Virus record (IMG/VR): IMGVR_UViG_3300045747_000694
Span: 106,165-153,172 of that record
Direction: 5' to 3' (one strand)
Origin: a virus
DNA: 47,008 bases
The notes below the pieces were generated by a model. That model did no database searches, had not been told where the DNA came from, and saw only the letters and a program-made list of their open reading frames with translations. The translations under genes were made by a program, and so were the position numbers. Shown here piece after piece: positions 2,307 to 44,332 of this stretch. Each line of letters starts with the position of its first letter. Position 1 is the stretch's first letter.

Positions 2307-2506
2307 GGGAGATCATCGAGCAAGACATGGTCGTTGATGGGAAGGTCGTGCGGGTGACCCTCATCAACGATCCCAACATCGACGACGTTCTCATCGGCGA
2401 GTCGCAGGACTACGCCTACGGCCTCTCGAGTGGTACGACTGACCCCGAGCGCCGGGTGGTGAGAAGCGTCCGCGAGATCTTCCTGATGTTCGGGGTGCAG
2501 CGATGA
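2303..2506 (+). CDS. Small hypothetical protein (67 aa), translationally coupled
   Basis: GTG start overlaps the upstream TGA stop (GTGA). GC3-rich coding bias. Confidence 0.45.
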   Translation: MREIIEQDMVVDGKVVRVTLINDPNIDDVLIGESQDYAYGLSSGTTDPERRVVRSVREIFLMFGVQR

Positions 2507-2515
2507 GGAGCTCCA

Positions 2516-3970: not shown

Positions 3971-4060
3971 CCACTGTCTGCCATCGGCAAGCCACTTCGC
4001 CTCCGGCTCTTCCTCGAGGGCGTCGAGATCCCCATCGTCGCGGCTCAGGTCTCGATCGGG

Positions 4061-7048: not shown

Positions 7049-7101
7049 CGTTCCCAACCCACAGGGCCTGGTGTAACGTGCCCAGAAGAGGAGACTTCAC
7101 C

Positions 7102-7446
7102 ATGTCCAGCGACACCAAGTATCTCGCGTTCCGTGACGAGCTCACCAAGATCTCTGGCGAGTCCCGCATCGGTCGCAAGCCCATCGGCATCGAGAAGCTG
7201 CTGGAGAACGAGTCCGAGGTCACGGGCCTTCCCGAAGACTTCACGGCGGCGCCGGAAGTGGTCGAGGTGGCGCAGCAGGCCGCCAAGGCCCTCGTGAAGA
7301 TGTCGGCCTCCGTCAGCATCAAGGGCGGCCACGCCGCGCTCCTCGCCGCCGGCGCGGGCGGGGCGCTGTTCGCGCGCAAGGCCAACGAGGACCGCAAGAT
7401 GGGTCGCGCCATGCGGAAGCAGCAGCAGGCGCAGCAGGCGTACTGA
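7102..7446 (+). CDS. Small protein (114 aa) with a Gly-zipper-like hydrophobic segment and a basic C-terminus; paralog of the next gene
   Basis: RBS GAGGAG upstream of ATG 7102. N-terminal motif KYLAFRDELTKISGES is shared with the 7454 ORF (HTAFLDELQKISEVS). Confidence 0.6.
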   Translation: MSSDTKYLAFRDELTKISGESRIGRKPIGIEKLLENESEVTGLPEDFTAAPEVVEVAQQAAKALVKMSASVSIKGGHAALLAAGAGGALFARKANEDRKMGRAMRKQQQAQQAY

Positions 7447-7453
7447 GGCCAGC

Positions 7454-8065
7454 GTGCTCCGCGACCGAGTGCACACGGCCTTCCTGGACGAACTCCAGAA
7501 GATCAGCGAGGTGAGTCTCGCTGGTCTGTCGCATGAGAGCGTCCAGCGGATGGCGACTCCGGCGCAGCCCATGGAGACCGCGGGTCTCTCGAAGGCCCTC
7601 GCGGTCCTGGCGCGCTACGAAGGGATGCCGAAGATCGCGTTCGTCAACCGCGTCTCGAACCCCGATCTCCCGCAGATGCGGCGCACGACCGGGGTTCGGA
7701 AGAAGTCGGCGGACAAGGGCGCGGTCGAGCAGGGCAAGAACCTGGCCGGCTACACCGCCGGGGGCATGGGCATCGGGCGCATCGGAGGGTACGTGGCGCA
7801 GGGGCCCCACGCCGCGATCTCCGAGGCAGCGAAGAGGTCCGCCCACGGCAAGATGTGGTGGGGCACGGTGGCTGGAGGTGCCCTTGGCGCAGCGGAGTAC
7901 GCACGCAAGCGCATCAAGGCCAAGCAGCAAGAGAAGGTGGCCGCCCTCGTTCCCACCGTCCAGTCCCCTGCGAAGCAGCTGCACTACGGCCAGCAGACGG
8001 GGAAGACCCAGGCTCACGGGCTGAAGTCCGGCCCCTCCATCCACCGTCTCGCCACCAAGGTCTAG
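7454..8065 (+). CDS. Paralogous small protein (203 aa) with a Gly-rich amphipathic segment and a basic tail
   Basis: GTG start. Shares the N-terminal motif and the GGALxAxxYARK-type segment with the 7102 ORF. Confidence 0.55.
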   Translation: MLRDRVHTAFLDELQKISEVSLAGLSHESVQRMATPAQPMETAGLSKALAVLARYEGMPKIAFVNRVSNPDLPQMRRTTGVRKKSADKGAVEQGKNLAGYTAGGMGIGRIGGYVAQGPHAAISEAAKRSAHGKMWWGTVAGGALGAAEYARKRIKAKQQEKVAALVPTVQSPAKQLHYGQQTGKTQAHGLKSGPSIHRLATKV

Positions 8066-8074
8066 GAGACCACC

Positions 8075-8602
8075 ATGAAGCTCCGCCTCAAGAAGACCGC
8101 TGGCCGCTACGACACCGACGCCCCCTACCAGTCGTCGTTCATGCCCAGCGTCCCCGAGAACATGGCCTCTCAGCGGGACCGCGAGGAGCTCGACCGGTTC
8201 CACACAACCCTGGACTCCCGCGTGGACACTCAGGCGACCCTGAAGAAGCTCTTCGACTACGCCACCACCTCTCGCGAGAAGGAGCGCGCCAAGGCGAAGA
8301 AGCTCTTCACGCAGGCAGGCGTGGCCTCCACCAACTCCCCCGGCCTCCAGCCGAACGTGCTGGAGACGCCGGCGCTCGAGCAGGACGCGGGGCTGGCCCC
8401 TGCGGTGAAGACCGCCTCGGCGGAGTTCAGCATCGCCCCGCGCGTCGACGCCTGGTTCGAGAAGAACGCCAGCTCCCTGCTGACCGAGGCGCAGCGTCGC
8501 TACCCCGAGCTGCTGAAGGCCGCGGCCATCCCGTCCCCTTCCCTGAAGCGGGGGAAGAGCACCCCGGTCGTCGCGAGCAGCCTCTCCGGCGGCAGCGCGT
8601 AA
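8075..8602 (+). CDS. Hypothetical protein (175 aa)
   Basis: AGGAG RBS 7 nt upstream. GC3 bias. Confidence 0.65.
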   Translation: MKLRLKKTAGRYDTDAPYQSSFMPSVPENMASQRDREELDRFHTTLDSRVDTQATLKKLFDYATTSREKERAKAKKLFTQAGVASTNSPGLQPNVLETPALEQDAGLAPAVKTASAEFSIAPRVDAWFEKNASSLLTEAQRRYPELLKAAAIPSPSLKRGKSTPVVASSLSGGSA

Positions 8603-8606
8603 CGCC

Positions 8607-9464
8607 ATGATCGAGGTCTCGGACACAAGTCCGGACCTGGACTGGGTCCTGGGGAAGCTCGCGGCCGCCAAGAAGGCGCCTCCAGCTTCCCCTGCGGCTT
8701 CTCCAGAGCAGAAGAAGCTGGATCTCCGGGCGAAGCAGCCGAAGGAGCTCGAGCTCTGGAAGGCGTGGAAGGATGGCGGCCAGAAGCCCCACCTCCTCGA
8801 GCCCCTGCTGAAGTCCTTCGCCCCGCTCATCAACTCGCGCATCAACCTCTACAAGAGGGCGGAGATCCCCACCGCGGCGCTCGAGCAGGAACACCACAAG
8901 TGGTTCCTGAAGGGGCTTCAGACCTTCGACCCCTCCAAGGGCGCGGCGCTCAACACGCACCTCACCACCAACCTGAAGAAGGCCGGGCGGTGGATCGAGG
9001 CCAACAAGAACTTCGCGTACATCCCCGAGAACGTCTCGCGCAACATCGGCGCCTACAAGAACTTCAAGGGCGAGCTGGCGGACCGGCTGGGCTACGAGCC
9101 GGACGACAAGACCATCCTCGACTTCGCCATCAAGGAGAAGCACCCGAAGCTGGGTGTGCTCTCCTTGAAGGACATCAAGCGCATCAACACGGACCAGCGC
9201 AAGGGCCTCATCGAGAAGGGGCACGAAGACGACCTCCTCTCCAACAGCGGGATCGACCCGCGCGAGGTCGAGGTGGCTCACCTCATCATCCCGCAGCTCA
9301 CCCCGCAGGAGCGGCTGGTTCATGAGCACACGCTGGGGCTGAACGGGAAGGCGCAGCTCAAGCCGGGCGACATCGCCAAGAAGCTGAAGATGGACAACTC
9401 CAAGGTGGCGAAGCTGCGCTCCGCGATCTGGAACAAGATGAAGCCGTACCTGGGCGAGTCATGA
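8607..9464 (+). CDS. Sigma-70 family RNA polymerase sigma factor (phage-encoded; regions 2 and 4 recognisable)
   Basis: Region-2-like segment ELELWKAWKDGG...LLEPLLKSFAPLINSRINLYKR. C-terminal region-4 helix-turn-helix LTPQERLVHEHTLGLNGKAQLKPGDIAKKLKMDNSKVAKLRSAIWNKMKPYL. Confidence 0.8.
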   Translation: MIEVSDTSPDLDWVLGKLAAAKKAPPASPAASPEQKKLDLRAKQPKELELWKAWKDGGQKPHLLEPLLKSFAPLINSRINLYKRAEIPTAALEQEHHKWFLKGLQTFDPSKGAALNTHLTTNLKKAGRWIEANKNFAYIPENVSRNIGAYKNFKGELADRLGYEPDDKTILDFAIKEKHPKLGVLSLKDIKRINTDQRKGLIEKGHEDDLLSNSGIDPREVEVAHLIIPQLTPQERLVHEHTLGLNGKAQLKPGDIAKKLKMDNSKVAKLRSAIWNKMKPYLGES

Positions 9465-9721
9465 CGACCTTCCGCGTCGACCCCACGATGCCCTCTCGTG
9501 TCGTGACCATCGCGACGACGAGGGACTCCCGGATGACCAGGTTGCAGCAGGCGACCAATGCCTACGCCGAGGTCGAGTTGAGCCGTATCGACGAAGAGGT
9601 GGCCGCCCTCGAGGCGATCACGAAGGCGCGCCGCGCCGGCCAGGGTGCCGCGGAGGACGCGGTGGGGCCAGCTACAGCCATTGCAGAAGCAGACATCGAC
9701 TCGTATCTGAGGGGAGTGTAA
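9461..9721 (+). CDS. Hypothetical protein (86 aa), ATGA-coupled to the sigma factor gene
   Basis: Start/stop overlap (ATGA). GC3 bias. Confidence 0.5.
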   Translation: MTTFRVDPTMPSRVVTIATTRDSRMTRLQQATNAYAEVELSRIDEEVAALEAITKARRAGQGAAEDAVGPATAIAEADIDSYLRGV

Positions 9722-9723
9722 CC

Positions 9724-10047
9724 GTGGAGGAGCTCTTCCAGCTCATCATCAAGTCCTACGGGCTCCTCGGGCTCGTCATGCTCTCGCCCTTCGTGGCGCT
9801 GAAGTTCATGTGGAGCCACGCCAAGGACCTCCAGAAGGATCTGAAGGCGGCCAACGAGCGCATCAACGAGACGCACTCCCGCCGGGTCGAGGACTCGAAG
9901 GAGATTGCCGACAAGCTCATGGAGATGATCAAGGAGCACGCCGAGCTCTCGAAGGAGACCAACATCGCTCTCGAGCGGGTCGGCGACATGCTCTCTGTGC
10001 TCCAGAACACGGGCGTCAGCCACATGAGGCACAACGGGGGACGTTGA
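9724..10047 (+). CDS. Small membrane protein (107 aa) with an N-terminal TM helix and a C-terminal coiled coil
   Basis: GTG start 2 nt after the upstream TAA. GGGGAG RBS. Hydrophobic segment LLGLVMLSPFVALKFMW followed by charged helical sequence. Confidence 0.5.
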   Translation: MEELFQLIIKSYGLLGLVMLSPFVALKFMWSHAKDLQKDLKAANERINETHSRRVEDSKEIADKLMEMIKEHAELSKETNIALERVGDMLSVLQNTGVSHMRHNGGR

Positions 10048-10056
10048 GGAGAGGTC

Positions 10057-10236
10057 ATGCACTACGGACGAAAGCAGTCATCTGCTTTGCACCTCCAGCC
10101 ACCGGCGCTGGAGTCCGATCCCAAGCTGAAGCTCGCCATGGAGTCCATGGACCAGCTCATCCGAGAGGCCAAGGCCAACCGGACCAAGGTGAAGGAGCTC
10201 GAGGTCCAGCTCGAGCGCTTCACCAGGCAGAGGTAG
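10057..10236 (+). CDS. Small coiled-coil protein (59 aa; below the ORF-track size cut-off)
   Basis: GAGGAG RBS 5 nt upstream of ATG 10057. Ends at TAG 10234-10236. The track ORF covering this region is in another frame and has no RBS. Confidence 0.4.
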   Translation: MHYGRKQSSALHLQPPALESDPKLKLAMESMDQLIREAKANRTKVKELEVQLERFTRQR

Positions 10237-10239
10237 GCG

Positions 10240-10491
10240 ATGTTCCTTCGGTGGTGGAACGAGCGCAAGGCGCGCAAGGAGACGAAGCGGCGACTCAACG
10301 ACGTGGTCATCACCACGGCCGCCATCAAGAGCCTCGACATCCCACTCAAGGAGCCAACCGAGGAGCAGTACTCGGCCACTGCATCCTTCGCCATCGTGAA
10401 GAAGTCGATCGACAACGCCACGGAGGCCAAGCAGGAAGCCAGAGGAGCAGCGCGACGCATCCTGGCCATGTTCGAGAAGCCCAAGAAGTAG
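10240..10491 (+). CDS. Small basic hypothetical protein (83 aa)
   Basis: ATG 3 nt after the upstream TAG. Weak AGAGG RBS. Confidence 0.45.
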   Translation: MFLRWWNERKARKETKRRLNDVVITTAAIKSLDIPLKEPTEEQYSATASFAIVKKSIDNATEAKQEARGAARRILAMFEKPKK

Positions 10492-10567
10492 CCTGGCAAC
10501 TTTGCTCTACGCAGCGGGCTGCTCGCCCCGTAGGATGTAAACGGCCCGTCTCCAGAGGTACGCACCG

Positions 10568-13500
10568 GTGGCTCTCCGCATCCCGAAGTTCATCCAGGAC
10601 CTGCTCAACGTCCCCACCGGGGCGCCGAACCACTACCTGCGATGGGACCCGCTGGCCAAGGAGATCATCAACGACCCTGGCCTCGGGGGCGGCGGCATCG
10701 GACCAGAGGGTCCCGCAGGTGCGACCGGTCCGCAGGGCGTTCCTGGCGTCACCGGTCCTCAAGGCCCGCAGGGACCAACGGGAGCCGTCGGTGCTACCGG
10801 CGCCGGCGTCACCGGCCCTCTCGGCCCGCAGGGTGCGACGGGCGCTCAAGGCGTCATCGGTCCGACGGGGGCACGGGGTCAGACTGGTGCCCAAGGTGAT
10901 GTCGGTCCCATCGGGCCGACTGGCGCTCAGGGTCCTCAAGGGGACCAGGGTGCGACCGGCCCTGTCGGCGCTGACGGCCCGCAGGGAGTGACTGGTGCGA
11001 CCGGTCCCGTTGGTCCTCAAGGCCAGACGGGGGCCGCCATCACGGGAGCTCAGGGTCTGCCCGGCGCGACAGGTCCGACCGGAGCAACGGGGGCGCGCGG
11101 CGCCACCGGCGTGACTGGGTCGGTCGGTCCGCAGGGGCCGACCGGAGCCGCCATCACTGGGGCGCAGGGGCCACAGGGAGTCACCGGTCCGACTGGCCCG
11201 ACCGGTGCCGTGGGCCCGCAAGGGCCGACTGGCGCCGCCATCACCGGGGCGGCCGGGCCGCAAGGGGTGACGGGCGCCACCGGTCCCACGGGGCCGCAGG
11301 GCCCCACCGGCGCGGCCATCACCGGAGCGACTGGCGTCACCGGCGCCCGCGGCGCCACGGGCGTGACCGGAGCCACTGGCCCAGCTGGTGCCACGGGTGC
11401 GACCGGCCCGGCCGGGCCGCAGGGTGTCACTGGCGCCACCGGGCCTACCGGCGCCGTCGGTCCGCAGGGGTCGACTGGCGCGGCCATCACGGGAGCACAA
11501 GGACCGCAGGGAGCCACCGGCGTGCCGGGCGTCACCGGCGCCACCGGGCCGATGGGCCCGGGCAGCCCCTCCGCCGGACCGACGGGAGCGCAGGGCGCCA
11601 CCGGCCCAGCTGGGCCGCAGGGCGTGACGGGTGCCACTGGCCCGACGGGGCCGAAGGGCGACACGGGAGCGGCCATCACCGGGGCAGCTGGCGTGACCGG
11701 CGTCACGGGCCCTGCCGGCCCGCAAGGCGTCACGGGGGCCACGGGCCCCACTGGCGCTCGCGGCGCGACCGGCGTCGACGGCGTCACGGGAGTGACTGGC
11801 CCAACGGGGGCTCGAGGTGCGACCGGCGTCGATGGGGTGACGGGCGCTACCGGGCCGACGGGTGCTCGCGGCGTCACGGGGGCGACCGGCCCAACAGGTG
11901 CTCCAGGCGTCCAGGGCGTCACGGGGGCGACCGGGCCGACCGGGGCGCAGGGAATCCAGGGGGTGACTGGGGCCACCGGTCCTACGGGCTCTCAGGGCCC
12001 TCAGGGGGTCACTGGCTCGACGGGTCCGACCGGGGCACCTGGCCCGCAGGGCGCGACCGGGCCAACTGGCCCGACAGGTGCGGTCGGTCCCCAGGGACCC
12101 ACGGGTGCCGCCATCACCGGAGCTGTGGGTCCGACGGGACCGGCCGGGCCAACCGGGCCGAAGGGTGACACCGGCGCCGCCATCACCGGCGCGCAGGGCG
12201 CCACCGGCGTTCAGGGGGTCCAGGGAGCCACGGGGCCCACCGGGCCCGCCGGCACGCAAGGGGTCACCGGCGCGACCGGGCCCACCGGGCCCGCCGGAGC
12301 TCAGGGTGCTACCGGTGCGACTGGGCCAGTTGGTCCGCAAGGTCCGACGGGTGCCGCGATCACGGGCGCCACCGGGCCGCAGGGGCCGCAAGGCAACCCC
12401 GGCGTCACGGGGCTCACCGGTGCGACAGGGCCGCAGGGATCGCAGGGCCCCACGGGAGCTCTCGGCCCCACCGGTCCTGCCGGTTCACAGGGAGTGACTG
12501 GCGCTACTGGTCCGACCGGAGCGCAGGGTCTTCAGGGCGCCACCGGGGCGACAGGTCCGACTGGGCCAGCGGGAGCGCAGGGGGTCACTGGCGCAACCGG
12601 CCCGACGGGCCCAGCTGGCGCGCAAGGGGTCACTGGTGCTACGGGGCCGACGGGACCGCAGGGCGTGCAGGGACCGACGGGCTCGGCCATCACCGGCGCA
12701 ACGGGGCCGGCTGGCCCGCAGGGACCGACAGGCACGCAGGGCATCACCGGGGCCACGGGACCGACCGGCCCTCAGGGCACGCAAGGCGTGACCGGGGCGA
12801 CCGGCCCGACCGGGCCGGCAGGCGCGCAGGGAGTCACCGGAGCTACTGGCCCGACTGGTCCCGCTGGTACGCAGGGCGTGACTGGGTTCACGGGCCCCGT
12901 CGGTCCTCAGGGTCCGACGGGAGCGGCTATCACTGGCGCTACCGGCCCTGTTGGTCCTCAGGGCCCGACCGGAGCGCAGGGCATCACCGGCGTCACCGGT
13001 GTCACCGGACCCACAGGTGCTCAGGGGCCTGCGGGCCCGACAGGGGCACAGGGGGTCACCGGGCTCACTGGGCCTGTCGGCCCGCAGGGGCCGACAGGTG
13101 CTGCCATCACGGGAGCCACCGGGCCCACCGGAGCGATCGGGCCTCAGGGTGTGACGGGGGCAACCGGGCCAACGGGCCCCGCGGGCGCAACCGGCGCAAC
13201 CGGCGTGACCGGCGCGCGAGGCGCGACAGGCATCACCGGAGCTACCGGACCCACGGGGCCTGCCGGTCCTCAAGGAGTGACCGGAGCCACCGGCCCTACC
13301 GGCCCGGGCGGCCCCACCGGCTCAGTCGGACCGCAGGGCGTCACCGGGGCAACGGGGCCCACCGGTCCGGCTGGTGCCGACGGTGCGACTGGCCCTGCTG
13401 GTGCCGGTCTCGATGGCGCCACTGGACCTATCGGTCCGGCCGGCGCTACTGGGGCGACCGGGCCAGCTGGTCCTCAGGGTGTCACGGGAGCAACGGGACC

Positions 13501-14371
13501 AACCGGGCCCGCCGGAGCAACCGGTGCGACCGGCGTGACGGGAGCTCGAGGCGCGACCGGGGTCACGGGAGCCACTGGCCCGCAGGGCTCTCCTGGCCCA
13601 ACGGGCGCCGCGATCACGGGAGCCATCGGACCGCAAGGCGTGACTGGCTGGACTGGCCCTGTCGGGCCGCAGGGTCCCACCGGAGCAGCCATCACTGGTG
13701 CAACCGGTCCTGCTGGTCCGACAGGTGCGACTGGCGCGATTGGGCCGACCGGTCCTGCCGGCAGCGGCGCAGTGAAGACGCTGAACCAGGCCTACTGGGA
13801 CGGCGGTACCGGCCCCGGCGGCGTGGGCGGAGAGATCGACCTCAACGCCACCATCGGACCGGTACGCCTCATCGGCTCCGGTGCGGCATCCGGCGGCGTC
13901 TACTTCCAGGTGGCAGACGCCGCCGGCGGCCTGCCTCTCTTCGAGGTGCGCGAGGGCGGTGGCCGCGGCGTCATCATGATCCCGCGCATCGAGCTCGGCG
14001 GCACGCCCCTCACCCCGGCCAACTTCTCGCTCTCTCGTTGGGGCTCGGGTGCGTCTTCCCCCGGCAACTACGGCGTGACGGGAGTCTCCTGCTCCGACGC
14101 CGGCGGGTCGTTCACCGTCGTCGCGGGGCAGACGGGGTACTCGCCAGCGCCCCAGATCACCATCAACTTCAAGGATGGTCCTCGAGCGGGCAACCCCTTC
14201 GTCCTCGCTCGCGTGATGAACCCGTGCATCCCTACGAACGCGAGCCTCTGGGGCTACAGCGTCATCAACCCGGTGCTCATCACCCAGAGCCCGACCTTCA
14301 TCACGATGATGATCCCGGGCTCCCCCACGAACCGCTGCTCCATCACCATCCAGTTCGTCTCCTTCGCATAA
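10568..14371 (+). CDS. Collagen-like fibre protein (1267 aa): about 1060 aa of Thr-rich Gly-X-Y repeats plus a roughly 200-aa beta-rich C-terminal globular domain (BclA-like architecture)
   Basis: Continuous G-P/A/V-T/Q triplets ([13 protein letters not shown]...). A recurrent GAAITGA interruption occurs about 14 times. Non-collagenous C-terminus begins around [18 protein letters not shown] start with an AGAGG RBS. Confidence 0.9.
10700..13760 (+). repeat. Triplet (9/18-nt) coding tandem repeats encoding the Gly-X-Y collagen-like region
   Basis: Reiterated GGN-CCN/GCN/GTN-ACN/CAG units. They create spurious long ORFs in all six frames. Confidence 0.85.
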
Positions 14372-14416: not shown

Positions 14417-15073
14417 ATGGAGCTCCGCTCGTCATCCTTCCGCGGGAAGGACTTCAAGTTCCAATGCGATCCCGAGGATCACTCCTCGCATTGGACCTTT
14501 GAAGACGAGAGGGGCGTTCGAGACGAGCTCTGGGACGTCCACGAGGGCGACATCATCCTCGACGTAGGAGCTGCTTTCGGTTCCTATGCGCTCTCCGCCC
14601 TGGCCGTCGGCGCTTCCTTCGTGCACTCCTGGAGCATGGAGACGCACCATCAGATCATGATGGAAGAGTCGCTCAAGGCGAACAGGTGGGAGAAGCGGTG
14701 CACCGTCAACCGCTTCGGTCTCTTCCACCGCCCAGGCTGGTACCGCTGGCAGGACCGCAGGTTCTCGGAGACTCCCGAAGAAGGCTTCGTGGTGGTCGAC
14801 TCCATCGACCACATGATGGAGGACCCAGAGCTCTTCCCCTACGGTCCTCGCTACTTCATCAAGATCGACACCGAGGGGGCCGAGCCGGAGATCCTCAAGG
14901 GGGCCGAGAAGTTCCTCGAAGTCCACCGCCCCAACATCTTGGTGGAGAACCACGACTTCCTTCGTCCACACGCCACCTCTTTGGTGCGCGAGTACCTCGC
15001 AGAGCAGGGGTTCGAGCTGAGCGTCGACCGCCCCTCCGCCATGTGTTCCCACTCTCTGTACCTCCCAGACTAA
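14417..15073 (+). CDS. FkbM-family SAM-dependent methyltransferase
   Basis: Motifs ILDVGAAFGSYAL (SAM-binding G-loop) and YFIKIDTEGAEPEILKGAEKFL, typical of the FkbM methyltransferase domain. Confidence 0.75.
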   Translation: MELRSSSFRGKDFKFQCDPEDHSSHWTFEDERGVRDELWDVHEGDIILDVGAAFGSYALSALAVGASFVHSWSMETHHQIMMEESLKANRWEKRCTVNRFGLFHRPGWYRWQDRRFSETPEEGFVVVDSIDHMMEDPELFPYGPRYFIKIDTEGAEPEILKGAEKFLEVHRPNILVENHDFLRPHATSLVREYLAEQGFELSVDRPSAMCSHSLYLPD

Positions 15074-15100: not shown

Positions 15101-18100
15101 ATGACCGTCTCGCTTTGCATGATCGTGCGCGACGTCGAAGAGCACCTCGACGCCTGCCTGGCCTCGGTGGAGAAGTACGTCGACGAGATCGTCATCGTCG
15201 ATACCGGGTCGGTGGATGGGACGAAGGCTGTGGCGCTGCGGCACGGTGCCAAGATCTTCGACTTCAGCCCGGAGACCAACCCCGAAGCCTTCCTGCTCGA
15301 CGATGAGAAGACGATGGCTCCTCCTCCCTACACGGGGAAGTGGATCCTCGCCGACTTCGCCGGCGCGAGGAACCTCTCGTTCGACAAGGCGACCAGCGAC
15401 TTCGTCTTCTGGATCGACTCCGATGATGTCGTGGTGGGTGCCGAGAACATCCCCTCCATCCTGAAGGAGCTCGAGGGGATGCAGATGGGATGTGCCTGGT
15501 TCCGCTACGACTACGCCTTCTCTCCCGACGGGCAGCCTACCTGCCAGCTCTGGCGAGAGCGGATCATGCGGAAGGGCGCGGGAAGGTGGACGAACCCCAT
15601 CCACGAGGTCTGCATCCCCACGCAGGGGTCCGTCAGCAAGAACTACGACTTCGTCGTCATCAAGCACCAGAGGGACGACAACAAGACGCCCGCGGTGGCA
15701 CACCGCAACTACAAGGTGCTGAAGAGGCAGTACGAGAAGGAGAAGGGCGCCAAGAACTTCGACGCCAGGACGCTCTTCTACCTGGGCAACGAGTCGAAGT
15801 TCATGAACGCCGACGAGGCCATCGGCTACTTCGAGCAGTACCTGCGCCTCTCGGGATGGGACGAGGAGCGCGCTGTGGCGCGGATCCTCATGGGCCAGCT
15901 GTTCGAGGTGAAGGGCGACATCGAGGGGGCCTTCCGCGCCTACTCTTCCGCGACCTACGACTACCCCTTCAACCCCGATCCGTACTTCGCCCTCGCCCGT
16001 CTCGCCTACAAGAAGGACGACTGGAGGAAGTGCATCGACTTCACCGAGCACGGGCTGTCCAAGGGGAACCCGCACTCGGCCATCATGTACAACCCCCTCG
16101 ACCGGAACTACTACCCGCACACCTACTACAACGTCGCCCTCAACAACGTGGGCCGGGTGGCTGATGCGGCGAAGTCCTGCGAGGAAGGCCTCAAGTCCGT
16201 TCCGGAAGACACCAACCTCAAGTTCAACAAGCATCTCTACGACGACTACCTGAAGAGGAACCCGCAGCCGGAGAAGCAGGCGACCGCGCAGTCGATCACC
16301 TTCGACGGCGCCTCCATCGACTCTCCGCCCAACCTGCCTTCCGGTGTCGTCGCGACGCTGGGTCTCCAGATCTGGAAGGAGCTGCTTCGCTACGACGAGG
16401 TGGTGAAGGCGCGGACCTTCCTCGAGTCCCTTCCCTATGTCACCGAGGGGAGCGAGGGACTCGAGAAGGCGAAGAAGCTCACCGACGAGATCCTCGAGTT
16501 CGCCACCTCGCCAACCAAGATGCAGGCGCAGTACAACGACTGGCATCACGTCGACGAGGCCATCCCCTTCACGGCACAGGTGCCGAAGCACTGGTCTCAG
16601 TACCCGCGCTTCAGCTCGGTCATGGCGTTCTTCGAGGGGAAGTCGAAGCTGCGGGTCCTCGACATCGGCTGCCAGGACGGCTGGATCTCGAACCGTGTCG
16701 CGCGTCTCGGCCATTCGGTGGTGGGTCTCGACTTCAGCCAGGCCTACCTCGAGATCGCCAAGAGGAACGCCCGGTGCGAAGGGCTCGATGCCACCTACAT
16801 CCTCGGCTTCATCGAGGAGCTCTCCAAGGCGGTCCCTGAGAAGTACGACGTCGTCATCTGCACGGAGGTCATCGAGCACTCCGCGGACCCGGACAAGCTC
16901 ATCAGGGACATCAAGCGTGTGCTGAAGCCGGGCGGGACGCTTCTGCTCTCGACGCCGAAGGGGCACTGGTTCCAGGGGCAGGCGCATGAGTTCGCTTCGG
17001 CATGGAACGCGCCTCGTCAGCACATCCAGGCCTTCACCGTGAAGTCGCTCTCCAAGGTCCTGGGGAACCATCTCCACGTCACCTCCTGCTACGAGATGCC
17101 GGTCCCCACGCCGGACGTCCCTGGGCAGGGCACTCTCTTCGCCGAGGCGGTCTTCGAGATCACCCTCGAGAAGGGCGGGCAGGACATCGTCTTCTACACG
17201 GGGCCAGCGTGGGAGTGGTGGAACGCCAACAGCCCCTACCGAGAGGGGACGGGAGGCTCCGAGCTGGCCTGTGTGGAGATGGCGAAGTCCTTCGCGAGGA
17301 TGGGGCACAGGGTCAGGGTCTACAGCGACTGCCCGGGGATGGAGGGCATCTACGACGAGGTCGAGTACCTGCACTTCTCCCACGCGCAGCCTGGGACCAT
17401 CACCTGCGACGTCTTCATCAGCTCGAGGCAGCCCACTGTTCTCCCGGCGCTCCAGCTCACCGCCAAGGCGCGGATCCTCTGGGTGCACGACATCCACGTG
17501 GGCGCCCCAGGATCGCAGCTGCATGAGGCCCTGCTCCACTACGACAGGATCTTCTGCCTCTCCAAGTGGCATCGCGACTACTTCCTCAGCGTCTACCCCT
17601 TCCTCGACCCGGAGAAGGTGGTCGTCTCGAGGAACGGCATCCTCATCGAGCGCTTCCCCTGTGCCGAGCACGCCAAGGAGAACAAGCTCATCTACACCTC
17701 CTCTGGCAACCGCGGCCTCGAGCTGCTGCTCGACCTCTTCCCCCGCATCAGGGAGAAGGTCCCTGACGTCGAGCTCGAGGTCTACTACGGCTTCAACGTG
17801 TGGAAGTCGGCGGCCAGGAACAGCCCCGACGAGATGGCTCAGATCGAGCGCATCGAGCAGAAGATGAAGAACACTCCCGGCGTCATCACGATGGGCCGGG
17901 AGAACCAGCAGGGGCTTGCCAAGGCCTGGCTTCAGGCCAAGGTCTGGGCCTACCCGACCTGGTTCACCGAGACCTACTGCATCTCGGCCCTCGAGGCACA
18001 GGCTGCCGGCGCCGTCCCCGTGACCACGAACCTCGCAGCCCTCGGGGAGACCGTGCAGTCCGGCTTCCTCCTCAGTCCTCCTCTCAACGAGGAGTACAAC

Positions 18101-18286
18101 AAGGACTTCGTGGACTCGGTGGTGGAGCTGCTCACGGACGAGGAGGAGCGGCAGAAGCACGTCAAGATCGGAAGAGAGGCGGCCGAGAAGCTCACGTGGA
18201 GCAGCTTGGCCCTCGACTGGCGCAAGCAGTTCGATGAGGTGATCGAGGCGGTGAAGGTGAACCCCATCCACAGGTATATGCCATGA
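15101..18286 (+). CDS. Trifunctional glycosylation enzyme: N-terminal GT2 glycosyltransferase, TPR-like linker, class I SAM methyltransferase, C-terminal GT4 (GT-B) glycosyltransferase
   Basis: GT2 signature: IVRDVEEHLDACLASV...IVIVDTGSVDGT and a DSDD (DxD) motif. Methyltransferase motif I VLDIGCQDGWIS and ...VLKPGGTLLLSTP. GT4-like C-terminus: GGSELACVEMAKSFARMGHRV and EAQAAGAVPVTTN. Confidence 0.85.
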   Translation: MTVSLCMIVRDVEEHLDACLASVEKYVDEIVIVDTGSVDGTKAVALRHGAKIFDFSPETNPEAFLLDDEKTMAPPPYTGKWILADFAGARNLSFDKATSDFVFWIDSDDVVVGAENIPSILKELEGMQMGCAWFRYDYAFSPDGQPTCQLWRERIMRKGAGRWTNPIHEVCIPTQGSVSKNYDFVVIKHQRDDNKTPAVAHRNYKVLKRQYEKEKGAKNFDARTLFYLGNESKFMNADEAIGYFEQYLRLSGWDEERAVARILMGQLFEVKGDIEGAFRAYSSATYDYPFNPDPYFALARLAYKKDDWRKCIDFTEHGLSKGNPHSAIMYNPLDRNYYPHTYYNVALNNVGRVADAAKSCEEGLKSVPEDTNLKFNKHLYDDYLKRNPQPEKQATAQSITFDGASIDSPPNLPSGVVATLGLQIWKELLRYDEVVKARTFLESLPYVTEGSEGLEKAKKLTDEILEFATSPTKMQAQYNDWHHVDEAIPFTAQVPKHWSQYPRFSSVMAFFEGKSKLRVLDIGCQDGWISNRVARLGHSVVGLDFSQAYLEIAKRNARCEGLDATYILGFIEELSKAVPEKYDVVICTEVIEHSADPDKLIRDIKRVLKPGGTLLLSTPKGHWFQGQAHEFASAWNAPRQHIQAFTVKSLSKVLGNHLHVTSCYEMPVPTPDVPGQGTLFAEAVFEITLEKGGQDIVFYTGPAWEWWNANSPYREGTGGSELACVEMAKSFARMGHRVRVYSDCPGMEGIYDEVEYLHFSHAQPGTITCDVFISSRQPTVLPALQLTAKARILWVHDIHVGAPGSQLHEALLHYDRIFCLSKWHRDYFLSVYPFLDPEKVVVSRNGILIERFPCAEHAKENKLIYTSSGNRGLELLLDLFPRIREKVPDVELEVYYGFNVWKSAARNSPDEMAQIERIEQKMKNTPGVITMGRENQQGLAKAWLQAKVWAYPTWFTETYCISALEAQAAGAVPVTTNLAALGETVQSGFLLSPPLNEEYNKDFVDSVVELLTDEEERQKHVKIGREAAEKLTWSSLALDWRKQFDEVIEAVKVNPIHRYMP

Positions 18287-19425
18287 AGTTCGCCCTCATC
18301 TACGGTCGCTTCTGCTCCGCCGCCCGAGGCCCCTACAAGGCCCACGACATCGCCAGCCACGGCCTGACTGGCTCGGAGAGCTTCTACTTCAACACGGTGA
18401 AGGCGCTCTCCGAGGCTGGGCACACCGTCGACGCCTTCGGGTGGTGGGAGAAGGAGCACGTGGACGGCCTCGTCCACTACTACCCCTTCACCAAGAACGG
18501 GGACGACATGCACGTCCCCGATCCCGCGTCCTACGACGTGGCCATCGCATGGAGCGAGCCGGACTACCTTCGCGTCTTCCCCCCGACCGTTCTTCGGATC
18601 TGCGAGCAGCAGCTCAACGACTTCCCCTACGCCGGCGAGGGCTTCGAGAAGAGCGTCGATCTCTTCCTGTTCCCCTCCGACACCCACCGGAAGCACATCC
18701 TCTCCGTCACCCCCTGCATCGACCCGGCGAAGACGGACGTCTGGGGCAACTGCATCAGCAACGAGGACTACTTCACGGGGGAAGAGAAGGCTCGCGGGAA
18801 GAGCATCACCTACTGCTCCTCTCCGGACCGGGGACTGCACTGGCTCTGCGAGCTCTTCCCCCGGGTGAGGGCGAAAGTTCCCGAAGCCACCCTGCACGTG
18901 TACTATCGCTTCATGCCGTGGTACCAGCAGATGGCTGGTGAGTGGAACCCCGGCAACCCGGCCGCGCACCAGCAGGGCATGCGGGCCAGGTACGCGGGGT
19001 CGTTCTTCTACAAGATGGGAGCGATGGGAGAGAGCGGGGTCTTCTTGCACGGGGCAGTCACCAACCAGCAGATGGTCGCTGCCCTGGAGAGCTCTCGAGT
19101 CCTCGCGTATCCCTGTGACCCCGTCGTCTTCACCGAGGGCTTCGGGGTTTCCGTCCTCGATGCCTGCGCTGCTGGCGCCATCCCCATCATCAGCGACGTC
19201 GACGCGTTTGGAGAGGTCTACGGCGGCACGGCCATGGTCATCCCGGGACGGCCTGGCGACCACCGGGACGAGTGGGTCGCTGCGATGGTGAAGGCCCTCA
19301 CCGATGACGACCTCCAGAAGGAAGTCACCACCAGGTGCAGGGCCTTCTCGAAGAAGTTCACGAGGAAGGCCAGGGTGAAGCAGCTGCTCAAGATCATCTC
19401 CTCCCTGAAGAAGGCTGCCGCATGA
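18283..19425 (+). CDS. GT4-family (GT-B fold) glycosyltransferase
   Basis: ATGA overlap with the upstream gene. GT4-like segment VLAYPCDPVVFTEGFGVSVLDACAAGAIPIISDVDAFGEV. Confidence 0.75.
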   Translation: MKFALIYGRFCSAARGPYKAHDIASHGLTGSESFYFNTVKALSEAGHTVDAFGWWEKEHVDGLVHYYPFTKNGDDMHVPDPASYDVAIAWSEPDYLRVFPPTVLRICEQQLNDFPYAGEGFEKSVDLFLFPSDTHRKHILSVTPCIDPAKTDVWGNCISNEDYFTGEEKARGKSITYCSSPDRGLHWLCELFPRVRAKVPEATLHVYYRFMPWYQQMAGEWNPGNPAAHQQGMRARYAGSFFYKMGAMGESGVFLHGAVTNQQMVAALESSRVLAYPCDPVVFTEGFGVSVLDACAAGAIPIISDVDAFGEVYGGTAMVIPGRPGDHRDEWVAAMVKALTDDDLQKEVTTRCRAFSKKFTRKARVKQLLKIISSLKKAAA

Positions 19426-20909
19426 AGGGCGCTCTCGTCATCCCACCCTCCGCCTTCCTGCTCGACGCGAGGGTCTTCGTCAGTCTGGGCATCCTGAAGG
19501 TCGCCGCGGCGCTCGAGGCGAGAGGGGTCATGGTGGACGTCATCGACCTCTCCGGGGTCGCCAACTACAAGGACGCCCTCAGCGACTACCTCCACAACTC
19601 TCGGCCGGAGTGGGTCGGCATCACGGCGACGACTCCGCAGATGCCCTACGTCACGGAGCTCTCCCGGCTGGTCCGCTCTCACGGGGCCAAGGCCATCCTG
19701 GGCGGCCCGCACCCCACCCTCACCAACGCGGCCTACAAGAACGAGAAGAAGCTCCACCGTTCTGGCCGTGGGGGCAAGGCTTGGGAGCAGCTCCTCGAGG
19801 AGTTCGATGTCGTCGTGACCGGGGATGGGGAGAAGGCCATCTTCGAGGCCATCGACAAGAGCTGCGGCCACGTCGATGCCGACGATCCGAGAAGCGAGCT
19901 GTGGGTCTCCGAGAAGGAGATGATGGACCTCCAGCCGGCCCGCCACCTGGTCGACCTCTCCAGCTACCACTACTCCATCGACGGGGAACGGGCGACGAGC
20001 CTCATCGGCCAGCTGGGCTGTCCCTTCCAGTGCGCCTTCTGTGGCGGCCGCGCCTCTCCGATGCTGCGGCGCTCGAGGGTGCGGACGGTGCCGGACATCA
20101 TCGCCGAGGTGGCCCACCTGCATGACCGGCACGGCTACAAGGGCTTCATGTTCTACGACGACGAGCTCAACGTCGCGAAGAGCATGCCAGCCCTCATGGA
20201 CGCCATCCACCTCCTGGCCGTGAGCCGCAAGACGGAGTTCCGCCTGAGGGGCTTCATCAAGGCCGAGCTCTTCACCGACGAGCAGGCAGCCTCCATGGTG
20301 AGGGCCGGGTTCAAGTGGATCCTGGTGGGCTTCGAGTCGGGGTCGCCGAGGATCCTGGAGAACATCCGGAAGCAGGCCACCGTCGAGGACAACACCCGCT
20401 GCCTCGAGATCGCCAGGCGCCACGGGCTGAAGGTGAAGGCCCTGATGTCCATCGGCCACGCTGGCGAGTCGGCCGAGACCATCGCCGAGACGCAGGCCTG
20501 GCTCCTCAAGATGATGGTGGACGACTTCGACGCCACCATCATCACCACCTACCCCGGCACGCCCTACTACGACGAGGCCTACGAGTCGTCGGCAGGCATC
20601 TGGACCTACCAGGCCAAGGGCGGGGACAAGCTGCACGCCTACGCTCTCGACTACTCGAAGGTCTCCGACTACTACAAGGGCGACCCCAACGCCGGCTACA
20701 AGGCGTACGTCTTCACCGACCACCTCTCTTCCGAGGACCTTGTAGGTCTTCGTGGGCAATTGGAGCAGAAGGTAAGGACGGAGCTTTCTATTCCCTTCTA
20801 CCCAGGCGCGCCTGCGGTACAGTACGAACATTCCATGGGGATGGCCGGGCTTCCCGACACCATCCTACGGTCCTCGCACTTCGCGACCGCGCAAGGAGTG
20901 GGGACATGA
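19422..20909 (+). CDS. B12-binding-domain radical SAM enzyme
   Basis: N-terminal Rossmann-like B12-binding region (KGALVIPP...LGILKVAAALEARGVMVDVIDL). Radical SAM CxxxCxxC motif (GCPFQCAFCGG). Start chosen at the ATGA overlap with the upstream stop rather than the longer in-gene track start. Confidence 0.8.
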   Translation: MKGALVIPPSAFLLDARVFVSLGILKVAAALEARGVMVDVIDLSGVANYKDALSDYLHNSRPEWVGITATTPQMPYVTELSRLVRSHGAKAILGGPHPTLTNAAYKNEKKLHRSGRGGKAWEQLLEEFDVVVTGDGEKAIFEAIDKSCGHVDADDPRSELWVSEKEMMDLQPARHLVDLSSYHYSIDGERATSLIGQLGCPFQCAFCGGRASPMLRRSRVRTVPDIIAEVAHLHDRHGYKGFMFYDDELNVAKSMPALMDAIHLLAVSRKTEFRLRGFIKAELFTDEQAASMVRAGFKWILVGFESGSPRILENIRKQATVEDNTRCLEIARRHGLKVKALMSIGHAGESAETIAETQAWLLKMMVDDFDATIITTYPGTPYYDEAYESSAGIWTYQAKGGDKLHAYALDYSKVSDYYKGDPNAGYKAYVFTDHLSSEDLVGLRGQLEQKVRTELSIPFYPGAPAVQYEHSMGMAGLPDTILRSSHFATAQGVGT

Positions 20910-22111
20910 TCGCAACCATCCGAGACGCGAAGGGCCTGGGCAACTTCGCCGTCTACATTCGTTTCCGCAACGACATCACGAACTACTGGAACTTCGTGAC
21001 GCAGGCGTGGGAGGCGCTGGAGACCTCCGACTGCCGGCAGTTCCTCACCGAGTACCCGGACTCCAGCACCGTCGAGTCCCGCTACCAGCTCGAGCTCGCC
21101 AGCAACGTCATCCCGCCCGGCACCTTCATCGTCGAGTACGTTCACAGCTCGGACGAGATGGTCATCGGCGAAGAGACCTTCGCCGGCCCGCCGCCGCCCA
21201 TCTCCGGCACCGGGGCGAACCTCGTCACGGTCACGGTGACCGACGGTTCCGTCCCCATCGCCGGCGCCTTGGTGCAGGCCTGGCAGGCGGGGGTGCTCCT
21301 CGCCGCGGTGCTGTCCGACACCCAGGGAGTCGCGGCACTCGGTCTGCCTGCCGGCACCATCAACCTCGTCGTCACGAAGACGAGCTGGGGCTCCTTCCCG
21401 CAGCACACGATGACGGTGGTGGCTGGCCCGCAGGCAGTGGCCATCCAGGGGACGGCGACGCCGCCTGGCGCCCTTCCCCCGAGCGGCTTCGGGATCCTCA
21501 TCGCGGTGGGCGACGCGGACGCCAAGCTCCAGATGGGCTACTCCGTCATCGAGGTGCAGTCCTCGGACGATGAGGGCAACTCGTGGCAGGCCCTCACCGC
21601 GCCAGTCGCTGCCCCGCCGATTCAGGTCCACATCCCCCTGATGCCGGCGACCTACGCCTACTCCTTCCTCGACCCCCAGGGGACCTCGAAGCGTCGCTAC
21701 CGCTGGCGCTTCTCGGCCAACGGCGTGGCCCCGATCTCCCCCTTCGTGAAGTGGGTCTTCGGCACGCAGCGCGTCTCCACCGTCCCCATCTCCGTGGGGA
21801 CGATGCGTTTCGTTGGGCTGGACGGCATCATTCGTCCAGGCACCCTGCTGGCGGCCGCGCTGGATGCCTCTTCCGGCGGCTCGGTGTTCGTCGGAGTCAT
21901 GCTCGCCTACAACACCGACGAGTCCGGCTTCCTCGCCATCCCTCTCGTGCAGGGGTCGAAGGTGAGAGTTGCCATCGAGGGCACCAGCATCGTGAGGGAC
22001 ATCACCGTCCCCACCACCGAGACCTTCGACATCATGCAAGCCATCACCGCCGCGCCTGACATGTTCACGGTCCAGACGGTGCCTCCGATGCTCACGAAGA
22101 GGGCTCTCTAA
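20906..22111 (+). CDS. Structural protein (401 aa) with a carboxypeptidase-regulatory-like (transthyretin-like beta-sandwich) domain
   Basis: AAGGAG RBS. ATGA overlap with the rSAM gene. Segment GANLVTVTVTDGSVPIAGALVQAWQAGVLLAAVLSDTQGVAALGLPAGTINLVV. The track's longer 20315 start lies inside the upstream gene. Confidence 0.7.
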   Translation: MIATIRDAKGLGNFAVYIRFRNDITNYWNFVTQAWEALETSDCRQFLTEYPDSSTVESRYQLELASNVIPPGTFIVEYVHSSDEMVIGEETFAGPPPPISGTGANLVTVTVTDGSVPIAGALVQAWQAGVLLAAVLSDTQGVAALGLPAGTINLVVTKTSWGSFPQHTMTVVAGPQAVAIQGTATPPGALPPSGFGILIAVGDADAKLQMGYSVIEVQSSDDEGNSWQALTAPVAAPPIQVHIPLMPATYAYSFLDPQGTSKRRYRWRFSANGVAPISPFVKWVFGTQRVSTVPISVGTMRFVGLDGIIRPGTLLAAALDASSGGSVFVGVMLAYNTDESGFLAIPLVQGSKVRVAIEGTSIVRDITVPTTETFDIMQAITAAPDMFTVQTVPPMLTKRAL

Positions 22112-23016
22112 TGTCGACAGTGAACATCCTGGTGACGTCGGACGGGACCACTCCCTCACCCATCGCTGGTGCCGTCGTCTCCATCGTGGACCCCGCCACG
22201 AACCTGGCGCTCGTGGCCCGCGCGACCACCAACTCCTCGGGCATCGCTGGCTTCGACATCCCGGATGGCGTCTACGAGCTCCGTCTCTACAAGCGGAACG
22301 TCGTCTTCGGCGGGCCCGTGGCCATCACCGTCCTCGGCAACGGGGCGTACACGGTGACCGGCACGCTGATGCTCCTGCCGGTGGCGACCGACCCCCTGCT
22401 CTGCCGCTGCACGGGCCGCTTCGTCGGCTTCTCGGGACAGCCCCTCGCCAACGTCACGCTCGTCTTCACGCAGCGGGGTGACACCGAGAACATCGTCCCT
22501 CGGGTGTTCGACTCGCAGCTCGTGGGGCAGTCCGACCTCATCGCGCACACCAACACGGAGGGCTTCATCACCCTCGACCTCATCCGCACCGGAGAGTTCA
22601 AGCTCTCCATCTCCGGTGAGGAGCTGGTCTGGGACTTCAGGGTCCCCGACCGTTCTTCCGCAAACCTCATCGACCTTCTGCATCCTCAGCCGGTGTCTCT
22701 GACGTGGGATCCCACCTTGGCACCGGCGAATGCCATCACGGTGCAGGTGGGGCAGACCATCACGGTCCCGGTGTCCCTCGTACTGTCGAACTACGAGGTC
22801 CTCAACAACGGAGCTACCGAGCTATGGCTGGCGTATCTGAACTCAGACTCGATCATCGCCCCCGCGGCAATCGGGGACGCCGGAATGGAAGTGACGGGCG
22901 GGGCCGTCGGAACGGCGCAGATCTCCGCGTCTGCACGCCAGGGGTTCTACCCGCGAAGGGTGCCCGACCCGCCGGTGCTGGTCACGACCCCGCTGACCAT
23001 CAACGTTACACCCTGA
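22111..23016 (+). CDS. Structural protein (301 aa) with an N-terminal CarboxypepD_reg-like domain
   Basis: TAATG overlap. ILVTSDGTTPSPIAGAVVSIVDPATNLALVARATTNSSGIAGFDIPDGVYELRLYKRN. Confidence 0.7.
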   Translation: MSTVNILVTSDGTTPSPIAGAVVSIVDPATNLALVARATTNSSGIAGFDIPDGVYELRLYKRNVVFGGPVAITVLGNGAYTVTGTLMLLPVATDPLLCRCTGRFVGFSGQPLANVTLVFTQRGDTENIVPRVFDSQLVGQSDLIAHTNTEGFITLDLIRTGEFKLSISGEELVWDFRVPDRSSANLIDLLHPQPVSLTWDPTLAPANAITVQVGQTITVPVSLVLSNYEVLNNGATELWLAYLNSDSIIAPAAIGDAGMEVTGGAVGTAQISASARQGFYPRRVPDPPVLVTTPLTINVTP

Positions 23017-33558: not shown

Positions 33559-33561
33559 CCG

Positions 33562-38489: not shown

Positions 38490-38498
38490 GAGTGAACC

Positions 38499-44313: not shown

Positions 44314-44332
44314 CCCTGAACAGCAGTGACAG

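Follow-up and report, generated by a model that had tools for sequence, protein, structure and literature searches.

We analysed a 47,008-nucleotide stretch of viral DNA, hereafter the window, which spans positions 106,165 to 153,172 of the IMG/VR record IMGVR_UViG_3300045747_000694. At its centre of interest is a gene for a radical S-adenosylmethionine (SAM) enzyme, hereafter rSAM, that lies among glycosyltransferase (GT) and tail genes. The G+C content of the window is 65.4%, and the codon-model gene calls placed nearly all genes on the + strand. The rSAM open reading frame (ORF) comprises 495 codons and a stop codon. Its start at position 19422 is supported by three results: a gene caller that had learned the codon usage of the window chose exactly this position, a Shine-Dalgarno-like GAAGAAGG is present at 19407-19414, 7 nt 5' of the start, and the N-terminus of the protein can be aligned with those of 35 homologues. 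An earlier interpretation made from the letters of this DNA (the sequence-only reading) had proposed that rSAM is translationally coupled to both of its neighbours by ATGA overlaps, and both overlaps are indeed present (Table 1); AAGGAG at 20893-20898 precedes the ATG of the downstream ORF. The same reading had named the two neighbours as a GT4 gene and a structural gene. The upstream neighbour was found to be a GT1/GT4-type glycosyltransferase, as proposed, whereas the downstream 401-residue product can be called structural only by its position and a sub-threshold Ig-like match (CarboxypepD_reg, E 2.7e-4).

The rSAM protein matched two Pfam domains far beyond chance: B12-binding (residues 21-104; E 1.2e-13; 51.4 bits against a gathering threshold of 32.1) and Radical_SAM, PF04055 (residues 197-360; E 7.5e-23; 81.9 bits against a gathering threshold of 29.5). 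The cobalamin-binding-like N-terminal domain and the Cx3Cx2C motif that had been noticed in the sequence were therefore borne out, the former by an above-threshold Pfam match and the latter as C200-P-F-Q-C204-A-F-C207 inside the above-threshold Radical_SAM domain. Invariant flanking motifs, TTPQ (residues 70-73), GGPH (94-97) and GDGE (134-137), stretch the N-terminal domain to approximately residue 160. C200, C204 and C207 were the only cysteines that were invariant across 36 homologues, and no auxiliary cluster is therefore expected. The invariant cysteines, the conserved GFESGS and IGHAGE motifs and a modelled barrel with predicted local distance difference test (pLDDT) values >90 place the protein within the superfamily of radical SAM enzymes, and the order of its domains, with a Rossmann-type cobalamin-binding domain preceding the rSAM core, corresponds to the class-B architecture. 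The C-terminal extension showed no match to Pfam or NCBIfam domains.

The best match among the curated NCBIfam models was PhpK (TIGR04479), with 94.5 bits against a cut-off of 600, followed by BchE (TIGR02026; 89.6 bits, cut-off 481), HpnJ (TIGR03471; 78.8 bits, cut-off 577.6), QCMT (TIGR04014; 70.3 bits, cut-off 360), AprD4 (NF033070; 65.5 bits, cut-off 500, aligning only the core at residues 169-384), HpnR (TIGR04367; 59.0 bits, cut-off 650), TsrM (TIGR04428; 36.4 bits, cut-off 500; E 3.8e-5 for PDB entry 6WTE) and TIGR04295 (25.0 bits, cut-off 400). As all of these scores were far below their cut-offs, membership in these eight families was rejected, TsrM included, which the sequence-only reading had listed beside GenK and Fom3 as a family for comparison. 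In PHROGs, the protein showed only a weak match to an unnamed phrog.

An AlphaFold2 model was built from the family alignment described below, with a pLDDT of 86.2 and a predicted template modelling score (pTM) of 0.87. Foldseek returned AprD4 as the best structural match (E 3e-18), together with TsrM and MgmA/QCMT, then MiaB, OxsB, CysS and TokK, and a profile search of PDB sequences placed AprD4 (3e-20) just ahead of QCMT (8e-18) and revealed a shared PLPARxLVD motif. The closest cobalamin-dependent structure by sequence was QCMT/MgmA (E 6e-16), of which entry 9CCB is a cobalamin-dependent glutamine C-methyltransferase (PMC12931638, a 2026 review). The same review reports that AprD4 has a Rossmann-like domain yet binds no cobalamin, and a match to a B12 domain is therefore no proof of cobalamin use. 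When the N-terminal domain was searched in isolation, it matched only the B12 domains of PhpK, BchE, TsrM and HpnR, with AprD4 not among them, and it superposed on corrinoid-binding proteins (AerR, 1y80) with a root mean square deviation of ~2 Å. Together with the above-threshold Pfam match, these results favour a genuine corrinoid domain. In a weak alignment to TsrM, the invariant T70 falls at the lower-axial R69 of TsrM; this correspondence of sequence positions is only a lead. No sequence marker parts class-B methylases from enzymes of the OxsB or AprD4 type.

By its sequence, the rSAM protein belongs to a tight, unnamed and uncharacterised orthologous family. The proteins of the sister contigs were 85-88% identical to it, and all others among the 120 best listed matches were ~57-67% identical over the full length. 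Pairwise identity within the family, measured over 163 loci with one copy per locus, had a median of 58% and a minimum of 47%. Approximately 130 columns were invariant across 36 aligned members; the window protein has every one of these residues, and its identity to members of other clades is 57-61%. The family signature is a length of ~490-520 residues with the motifs PPSxFLLDxRVF, TTPQ, GGPH, GDGE, PARHLVD, CPFxCxFCGG, KVKALMSxGH, YPGTPYYD, YYKGDP and YEHSMG. In two-pattern scans, at least 138 contigs of IMG/VR carried the family, as did at least 388 species genomes of GTDB, among the latter Nitrospira (including the cultured Nitrospira moscoviensis, with its orthologue in NZ_CP011801 within 3306763-3328241), Elusimicrobia, Saccharibacteria and other candidate phyla radiation (CPR) bacteria, Planctomycetota, Acidobacteriota and Omnitrophota. 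Across the 163 loci, the nearest neighbour of a viral sequence was mostly viral and that of a bacterial sequence mostly bacterial. No family member was found in 50,697 deposited GenBank phage records or among PLSDB plasmids; the sole match in the deposited phages, a protein of Streptomyces phage SF3, was only 25% identical and belongs to a different family. Tandem rSAM paralogues that had emerged from loose single-linkage clustering were rejected as an artefact of multidomain fusions, as they disappeared at 70% coverage. Our literature searches found neither a description of the family nor one of virion glycosylation that involves a radical SAM enzyme, and we found no class-B member described from the glycosylation of proteins or cell surfaces or from a structural module of a phage.

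Several observations on individual members were made. Two independent inteins break family members P0038 and P0031, one inside the CX3CX2C motif (CPFA/C...HN/CGFCGG) and the other at the YDDELNV motif, which fits a highly conserved gene trafficked by phages. Over-long rSAM ORFs occurred at loci L153 (836 residues), L155 (773 residues) and L144 (626 residues). Members were also present on two short contigs, L098 (29 kb) and L109 (19.6 kb), that are binned as Akkermansia muciniphila metagenome-assembled genomes (MAGs); the neighbours there are mostly unannotated, and these contigs may therefore be phage or prophage DNA and not chromosome. Nitrospira are aerobic nitrite oxidisers. As close homologues are present in Nitrospira, the term oxygen-sensitive, which the sequence-only reading had applied to the modification, describes a trait of the enzyme class and not the habitat.

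As evident from Table 1, rSAM is translationally coupled to its neighbours in a glycosylation cassette, which is flanked by a gene for a collagen-like fibre on one side and by tail genes of the Baseplate_J type on the other; the operon setting proposed earlier was thus supported. The Baseplate J or wedge-like protein identifies the region as a tail module. Of the 329 GXY triplets in the fibre protein, 170 have Thr as Y, and GAT, GPT and GVT are the most frequent. The 401- and 301-residue ORFs downstream of rSAM are presumed to be fibre or tail components, and were conserved in the sister contig only. Within the window, the cassette includes no flippase, polymerase or initiating phosphotransferase, no partner of the short-chain dehydrogenase/reductase (SDR) type, and no gene of nucleotide metabolism or DNA modification.

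Table 1. Features of the rSAM gene and of the surrounding cassette and tail genes in the window.
Feature	Coordinates	Strand	Basis
Collagen-like fibre protein, 1267 aa, proposed glycan acceptor, globular C-terminal domain	10568..14371	+	
FkbM-family methyltransferase, 218 aa, cassette member	14417..15073	+	
Multidomain enzyme, 1061 aa: GT2, TPR, class-I SAM methyltransferase, GT4	15101..18286	+	
GT1/GT4-type glycosyltransferase, 380 aa, cassette member	18283..19425	+	Pfam Glyco_trans_1_4
ATGA overlap of the rSAM ATG with the TGA of the GT gene 18283..19425	19422..19425	+	Seen in sequence
rSAM enzyme, class-B (B12-domain) architecture, 495 aa	19422..20909	+	Pfam, alignment, AlphaFold2 model
N-terminal Rossmann-type B12-binding-like domain, residues 21-104 by Pfam	19482..19733	+	
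Radical SAM TIM-barrel core, residues 197-360, with GFESGS (GGE-like) and IGHAGE motifs	20010..20501	+	Pfam, alignment
CX3CX2C [4Fe-4S] cluster motif, C200/C204/C207 (CPFQCAFC)	20019..20042	+	Sequence, alignment
Family-specific C-terminal extension, ~ residues 385-495, with invariant YYKGDP and YEHSMG	20574..20906	+	Alignment
ATGA overlap of the ATG of the downstream 401-aa ORF (20906..22111) with the rSAM TGA	20906..20909	+	Seen in sequence
Two ORFs (401 aa, 301 aa), weak Ig-like/CarboxypepD_reg-like matches	20906..23016	+	
Baseplate J/wedge-like protein, 1487 aa	26478..30941	+	phrog_6; PF04865 Baseplate_J on orthologue

The sister contig, a 198-kb uncultivated viral genome (UViG) of IMG/VR, kept the gene order of the window: collagen-like gene, 1061-residue GT, GT4, rSAM, 402- and 301-residue ORFs, and on to Baseplate_J. 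This contig, the baseplate wedge/J protein and a tRNA array with an HNH endonuclease assign the window to a tailed phage, and no capsid or terminase gene was found within the window. The array comprises 25 tRNAs at 44332..47010 (-), runs to the window end, and is broken by an HNH endonuclease ORF at 44811..45359 (-; HNH_5, E 4e-16); such tRNA arrays are typical of large phages. ARAGORN additionally called a 97-nt tRNA-Arg(CCT) at 37797..37893 (+), which spans the junction of ORFs 33562..37851 and 37848..38489 and is probably a false positive. Elsewhere in the window, the ORF at 43682..44083 (+) resembled Peptidase_C39 (E 2e-12), and that at 8607..9464 (+) was sigma-factor-like (phrog_351, E 2.6e-8) with a weak rubrerythrin match. 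Most of the large ORFs in 36..10500 and 31285..41756 (756, 484, 995, 757, 1429 and 1085 residues) had no Pfam or PHROG match, and the Baseplate_J and 995-residue proteins gave no tblastn match in the 50,697 deposited phage genomes. The lineage is one without cultured relatives.

The cassette was found to recur in unrelated phage contigs. On L011/L013 (111/240 kb), L025 (393 kb), L043, L046, L060 and L071, rSAM is flanked by genes homologous to those for the large GT, GT4 and FkbM methyltransferase, and these transferases were only 27-39% identical to those of the window compared with 56-59% for rSAM. The GT4 homologues lie beside rSAM on all of these contigs (29-39% identity), those of the multidomain GT belong to the L011/L013 and L060 cassettes, and those of FkbM occupy position -1 relative to rSAM in L043, L046, L071 and L011/L013. 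As the structural genes downstream are not shared, the cassette moves as a unit. Inside the L046 and L071 cassettes we found a collagen-repeat protein (1075 or 1152 residues) with a C-terminal domain homologous to that of the window fibre, and in IMG/VR this domain was present on three contigs only, all of which carry the rSAM cassette.

To describe the genomic neighbours of the family, genes were called in every locus by a codon model fitted to that locus, five neighbours to either side of rSAM were clustered, and the cluster representatives were annotated. The share of GTs peaked at the gene adjacent to rSAM, with 15% in viral and 33% in genomic loci, and was 2-5% and ~10%, respectively, beyond four genes. 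A glycan gene lay no more than five genes away in 58 of 81 viral and 68 of 81 genomic loci. The commonest neighbour was a gene of the SDR epimerase/dehydratase family (36 of 163 loci, 20 of them viral), often at position -1. GT4 occupied position +1 in 26 genomes, and a 247-residue GT2 occupied position -1 in 24 genomes; the latter was closest to polyprenyl-phosphate sugar synthases of the AglJ, Dol-P-hexose, ArnC and PpgS type. A second GT2 was a neighbour in 21 loci, and further common neighbours were a DegT aminotransferase, a cupin and TylF and FkbM methyltransferases. On contigs with precomputed Pfam annotation, rSAM was part of large glycan loci that also encode GT4, GT2, SAM methyltransferases, an ABC transporter, Capsule_synth, YfhO and an epimerase. 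In P0087, from an Acidobacteria MAG (L002 3474..5825), a single fusion protein combines rSAM with a glucose-1-phosphate cytidylyltransferase-like domain (TIGR02623, 187 bits), and its gene adjoins a Bac_transf initiating transferase and a second NTP_transferase. The adjacency of GTs, the glycan-locus contexts and the P0087 fusion place the family in sugar or glycan metabolism, from which we infer that its substrate class is a sugar or glycan. The link to glycans drawn by the sequence-only reading is much stronger than could be known from one stretch of DNA, as the orthologues adjoin GTs and nucleotide-sugar genes in phages and bacteria.

Some loci showed particular arrangements. Seven Nitrospira loci (L101, L111, L112, L121, L125, L133 and L138) contain a 285-residue protein of no known type, an AglJ/ArnC-like GT2 (247 residues) and rSAM, followed in most of them by a membrane protein of ~655-672 residues with a weak match to the LIC_10190 family, and they sit among housekeeping genes (MetRS, FolD). 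This gene order suggests that sugar reaches a periplasmic acceptor by way of a polyprenyl-phosphate-sugar. A UDP-glucose 6-dehydrogenase gene directly follows rSAM in two jumbo-phage contigs (L013 11514..12977; L025 11485..12954), and in the glycan locus of a 183-kb contig a second radical SAM enzyme, of the SPASM type (L169 12432..13487), lies two genes downstream of the family member.

Taken together, we favour, with modest confidence, an interpretation in which rSAM is a glycan-tailoring enzyme of the fibre cassette. The collagen genes inside the L046 and L071 cassettes, the shared C-terminal domain and the Thr-rich GXY repeats, which resemble those of BclA3, led us to propose that the cassette glycosylates the fibre, and this synteny would make a virion component the target. 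The chemistry, the use of cobalamin and the fibre as acceptor are put forward more cautiously than the substrate class. In this jumbo-type phage, rSAM is the last enzyme of a four-gene cassette (FkbM methyltransferase, GT2-TPR-methyltransferase-GT4, GT4 and rSAM), which is translationally coupled and, in the proposed scheme, expressed together with the tail and fibre genes. The GTs would attach O-glycans to the neighbouring collagen-like fibre, at its Thr-rich GXT repeats. The rSAM enzyme would cleave SAM reductively at its [4Fe-4S] cluster to give a 5'-deoxyadenosyl radical, which would take a hydrogen from a sugar carbon of a nucleotide- or lipid-linked sugar or of the nascent glycan; then, most likely, methylcobalamin would deliver a methyl group to give a C-methylated sugar, and O-methyltransferases would further decorate the glycan. 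C-H activation with methyl transfer from methylcobalamin was deemed the likeliest chemistry and is that of the majority of enzymes with this architecture; cobalamin-dependent C-methylation specifically is nevertheless a possibility to which we give somewhat less than even weight.

Several results weigh against this interpretation. The family is known from sequence alone, and no curated NCBIfam model reaches its cut-off for the rSAM protein. The best match of the predicted structure and of the profile was AprD4, a cobalamin-independent enzyme and a sugar diol dehydratase. Most other phage loci and all bacterial loci lack a collagen-like gene, so the rSAM family is not fibre-specific, and the case for the fibre as acceptor is drawn from synteny in only two lineages. 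Furthermore, compared with the sister contig, the dN/dS of rSAM (0.31) indicated purifying selection, as did the values of GT4 (0.09), the large GT (0.16) and the 301-residue ORF (0.17), but it was above those of its neighbours, and rSAM is thus the least constrained of these genes in the lineage.

The main rival concerns the chemistry. The family may act in the manner of AprD4, as a cobalamin-independent sugar 1,2-diol dehydratase or in another non-methylating rearrangement such as deoxygenation, epimerisation or ring contraction, with an SDR reducing the keto product to a deoxy sugar. HpnJ and OxsB illustrate that ring contractions are possible with this architecture. AprD4, besides being the nearest structure and having an N-terminal domain that does not bind cobalamin (PMC12931638), has a sugar as its substrate and the NADPH-dependent reductase AprD3 as its partner (PMC5461906), and the frequent SDR neighbour of the family recalls this pair. 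However, the NF033070 score was far below its cut-off and covered the core only, the isolated N-terminal domain matched B12 domains from enzymes that are known or presumed to use cobalamin but did not match AprD4, and the window cassette lacks an SDR partner; we therefore consider AprD4-like chemistry unlikely, while ranking it above every other alternative. If the chemistry is as we favour, the cassette may still be an auxiliary 'moron' module that remodels the envelope glycans of the host (lipopolysaccharide, capsule or S-layer), for example for superinfection exclusion, and leaves the virion undecorated. The bacterial homologues do lie in cell-surface glycan loci, with an AglJ/ArnC-like polyprenyl-phosphate GT2, YfhO, an ABC transporter and Capsule_synth, most other phage loci contain nucleotide-sugar genes and GTs with no obvious structural neighbour, and PHROGs labels related GTs as moron/auxiliary metabolic genes. 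The position of the window cassette between fibre and baseplate genes, on one strand and with overlapping stop and start codons, the collagen-like gene inside the L046 and L071 cassettes, and the lack of a flippase, polymerase or initiating phosphotransferase all speak against this, and a host-envelope role for the window cassette is in our view rather improbable.

Two further alternatives place the modification outside glycoprotein sugars. The closeness of QCMT/MgmA, a protein glutamine C-methyltransferase (PMC12931638), and a fibre gene 5 kb upstream would be compatible with C-methylation or another change of residues in the collagen-like fibre itself, in the way that QCMT and Mmp10 act on methyl-coenzyme M reductase. 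We judge this highly improbable: the family is 58% conserved over hundreds of loci that have neither a collagen-like gene nor a common protein partner, the genes that steadily accompany it encode GTs and nucleotide-sugar enzymes, a sugar-1-phosphate nucleotidylyltransferase is joined to one member, and TIGR04014 was far from its cut-off. Glycosyl hypermodification of phage DNA would find some ground in the dCMP deaminase two genes away from rSAM in one viral sub-clade (L078-L084), and hypermodification of DNA by phage GTs is known (bioRxiv 10.1101/2023.12.21.572611). That deaminase is encoded on the opposite strand, the window cassette includes no gene of nucleotide metabolism or DNA modification, and the bacterial homologues lie in envelope glycan loci, which leaves DNA as a substrate with hardly any weight.

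Returning to rSAM as a glycan-tailoring enzyme, the family is large, ~58% identical from phages to several bacterial phyla and consistently associated with glycan genes, which argues for a single, specific sugar modification that is probably novel and ecologically widespread. We offer only as a tentative idea, and one that is unlikely to hold in all its parts, that a cobalamin-dependent rSAM step yields a hitherto unknown C-modified sugar in O-glycans on the Thr-rich collagen-like fibres of a jumbo phage, and that Nitrospira, Elusimicrobia, CPR bacteria and hundreds of uncultured phages use the same highly conserved enzyme to make that sugar for their surface glycans. If true, this would be the first radical-SAM-dependent tailoring of a virion glycan, and the family would be a widespread new group of sugar-modifying enzymes exchanged between phage and host. 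It would suggest that virion fibres can bear elaborately tailored, methylated glycans whose synthesis depends on the iron-sulfur assembly and possibly the cobalamin supply of the host, and infection success would be tied to the cofactor status of the host. The cultured carrier Nitrospira moscoviensis makes the chemistry testable.

We compared the rSAM family with characterised enzymes and systems. AprD4 (PDB entry 6FD2), an rSAM 1,2-diol dehydratase of apramycin biosynthesis, was 18-22% identical, its NF033070 model left the N-terminal domain unaligned, and the C-terminal extension with YYKGDP and YEHSMG is unique to the rSAM family; in addition, AprD4 belongs to an antibiotic gene cluster, whereas the family lies in glycan and phage loci. 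The class I cobalamin-dependent rSAM enzymes of solved structure, QCMT/MgmA (9CCB), TsrM (6WTE), CysS (9N1B), TokK (7KDX) and OxsB (5UL4), were 12-22% identical to the window protein. They act on proteins, amino acids, carbapenems or nucleotides, and to our knowledge none of them belongs to a phage or to a pathway for glycoproteins or cell-surface glycans. What is known of class-B rSAM enzymes in general comes mostly from the pathways of antibiotics, cofactors and methanogenesis. Among these enzymes, GenK and GenD1 are cobalamin-dependent C-methylases of aminoglycoside sugars and provide a precedent for C-methylating unactivated sugar carbons; they belong to secondary-metabolite pathways of actinomycetes. 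In hopanoid cyclitol ether synthesis, the GT2 HpnI stands beside HpnJ, a B12-domain rSAM enzyme that rearranges a lipid-linked amino sugar. The Nitrospira loci with an AglJ/ArnC-like GT2 at position -1 resemble this pair. The HpnJ score of the window protein was far below its cut-off, and there are no hopanoid genes nearby.

The closest parallels to the fibre were found outside phages. In BclA3 of Clostridioides, a GT whose gene lies beside that of BclA3 attaches O-glycans to Thr in the GPT repeats (PMC7157674). BclA of Bacillus and BclA3 (with the GT SgtA) resemble the window in their collagen-like repeats rich in G-x-Thr and in a GT gene beside the fibre gene, and differ in being spore and not phage proteins and in involving no rSAM. 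Giant viruses encode collagen-like proteins together with the enzymes that glycosylate them, as with Mimivirus L230 acting on L71 (PMC9614988); L230 is an O2-dependent lysyl hydroxylase and glucosyltransferase of a eukaryotic virus, and that review of giant-virus glycans makes no mention of radical SAM. Compared with these systems, the fold and cofactor logic of a class-B rSAM enzyme are known, and the orthologous family, its glycan context and its setting in a phage fibre cassette are new.

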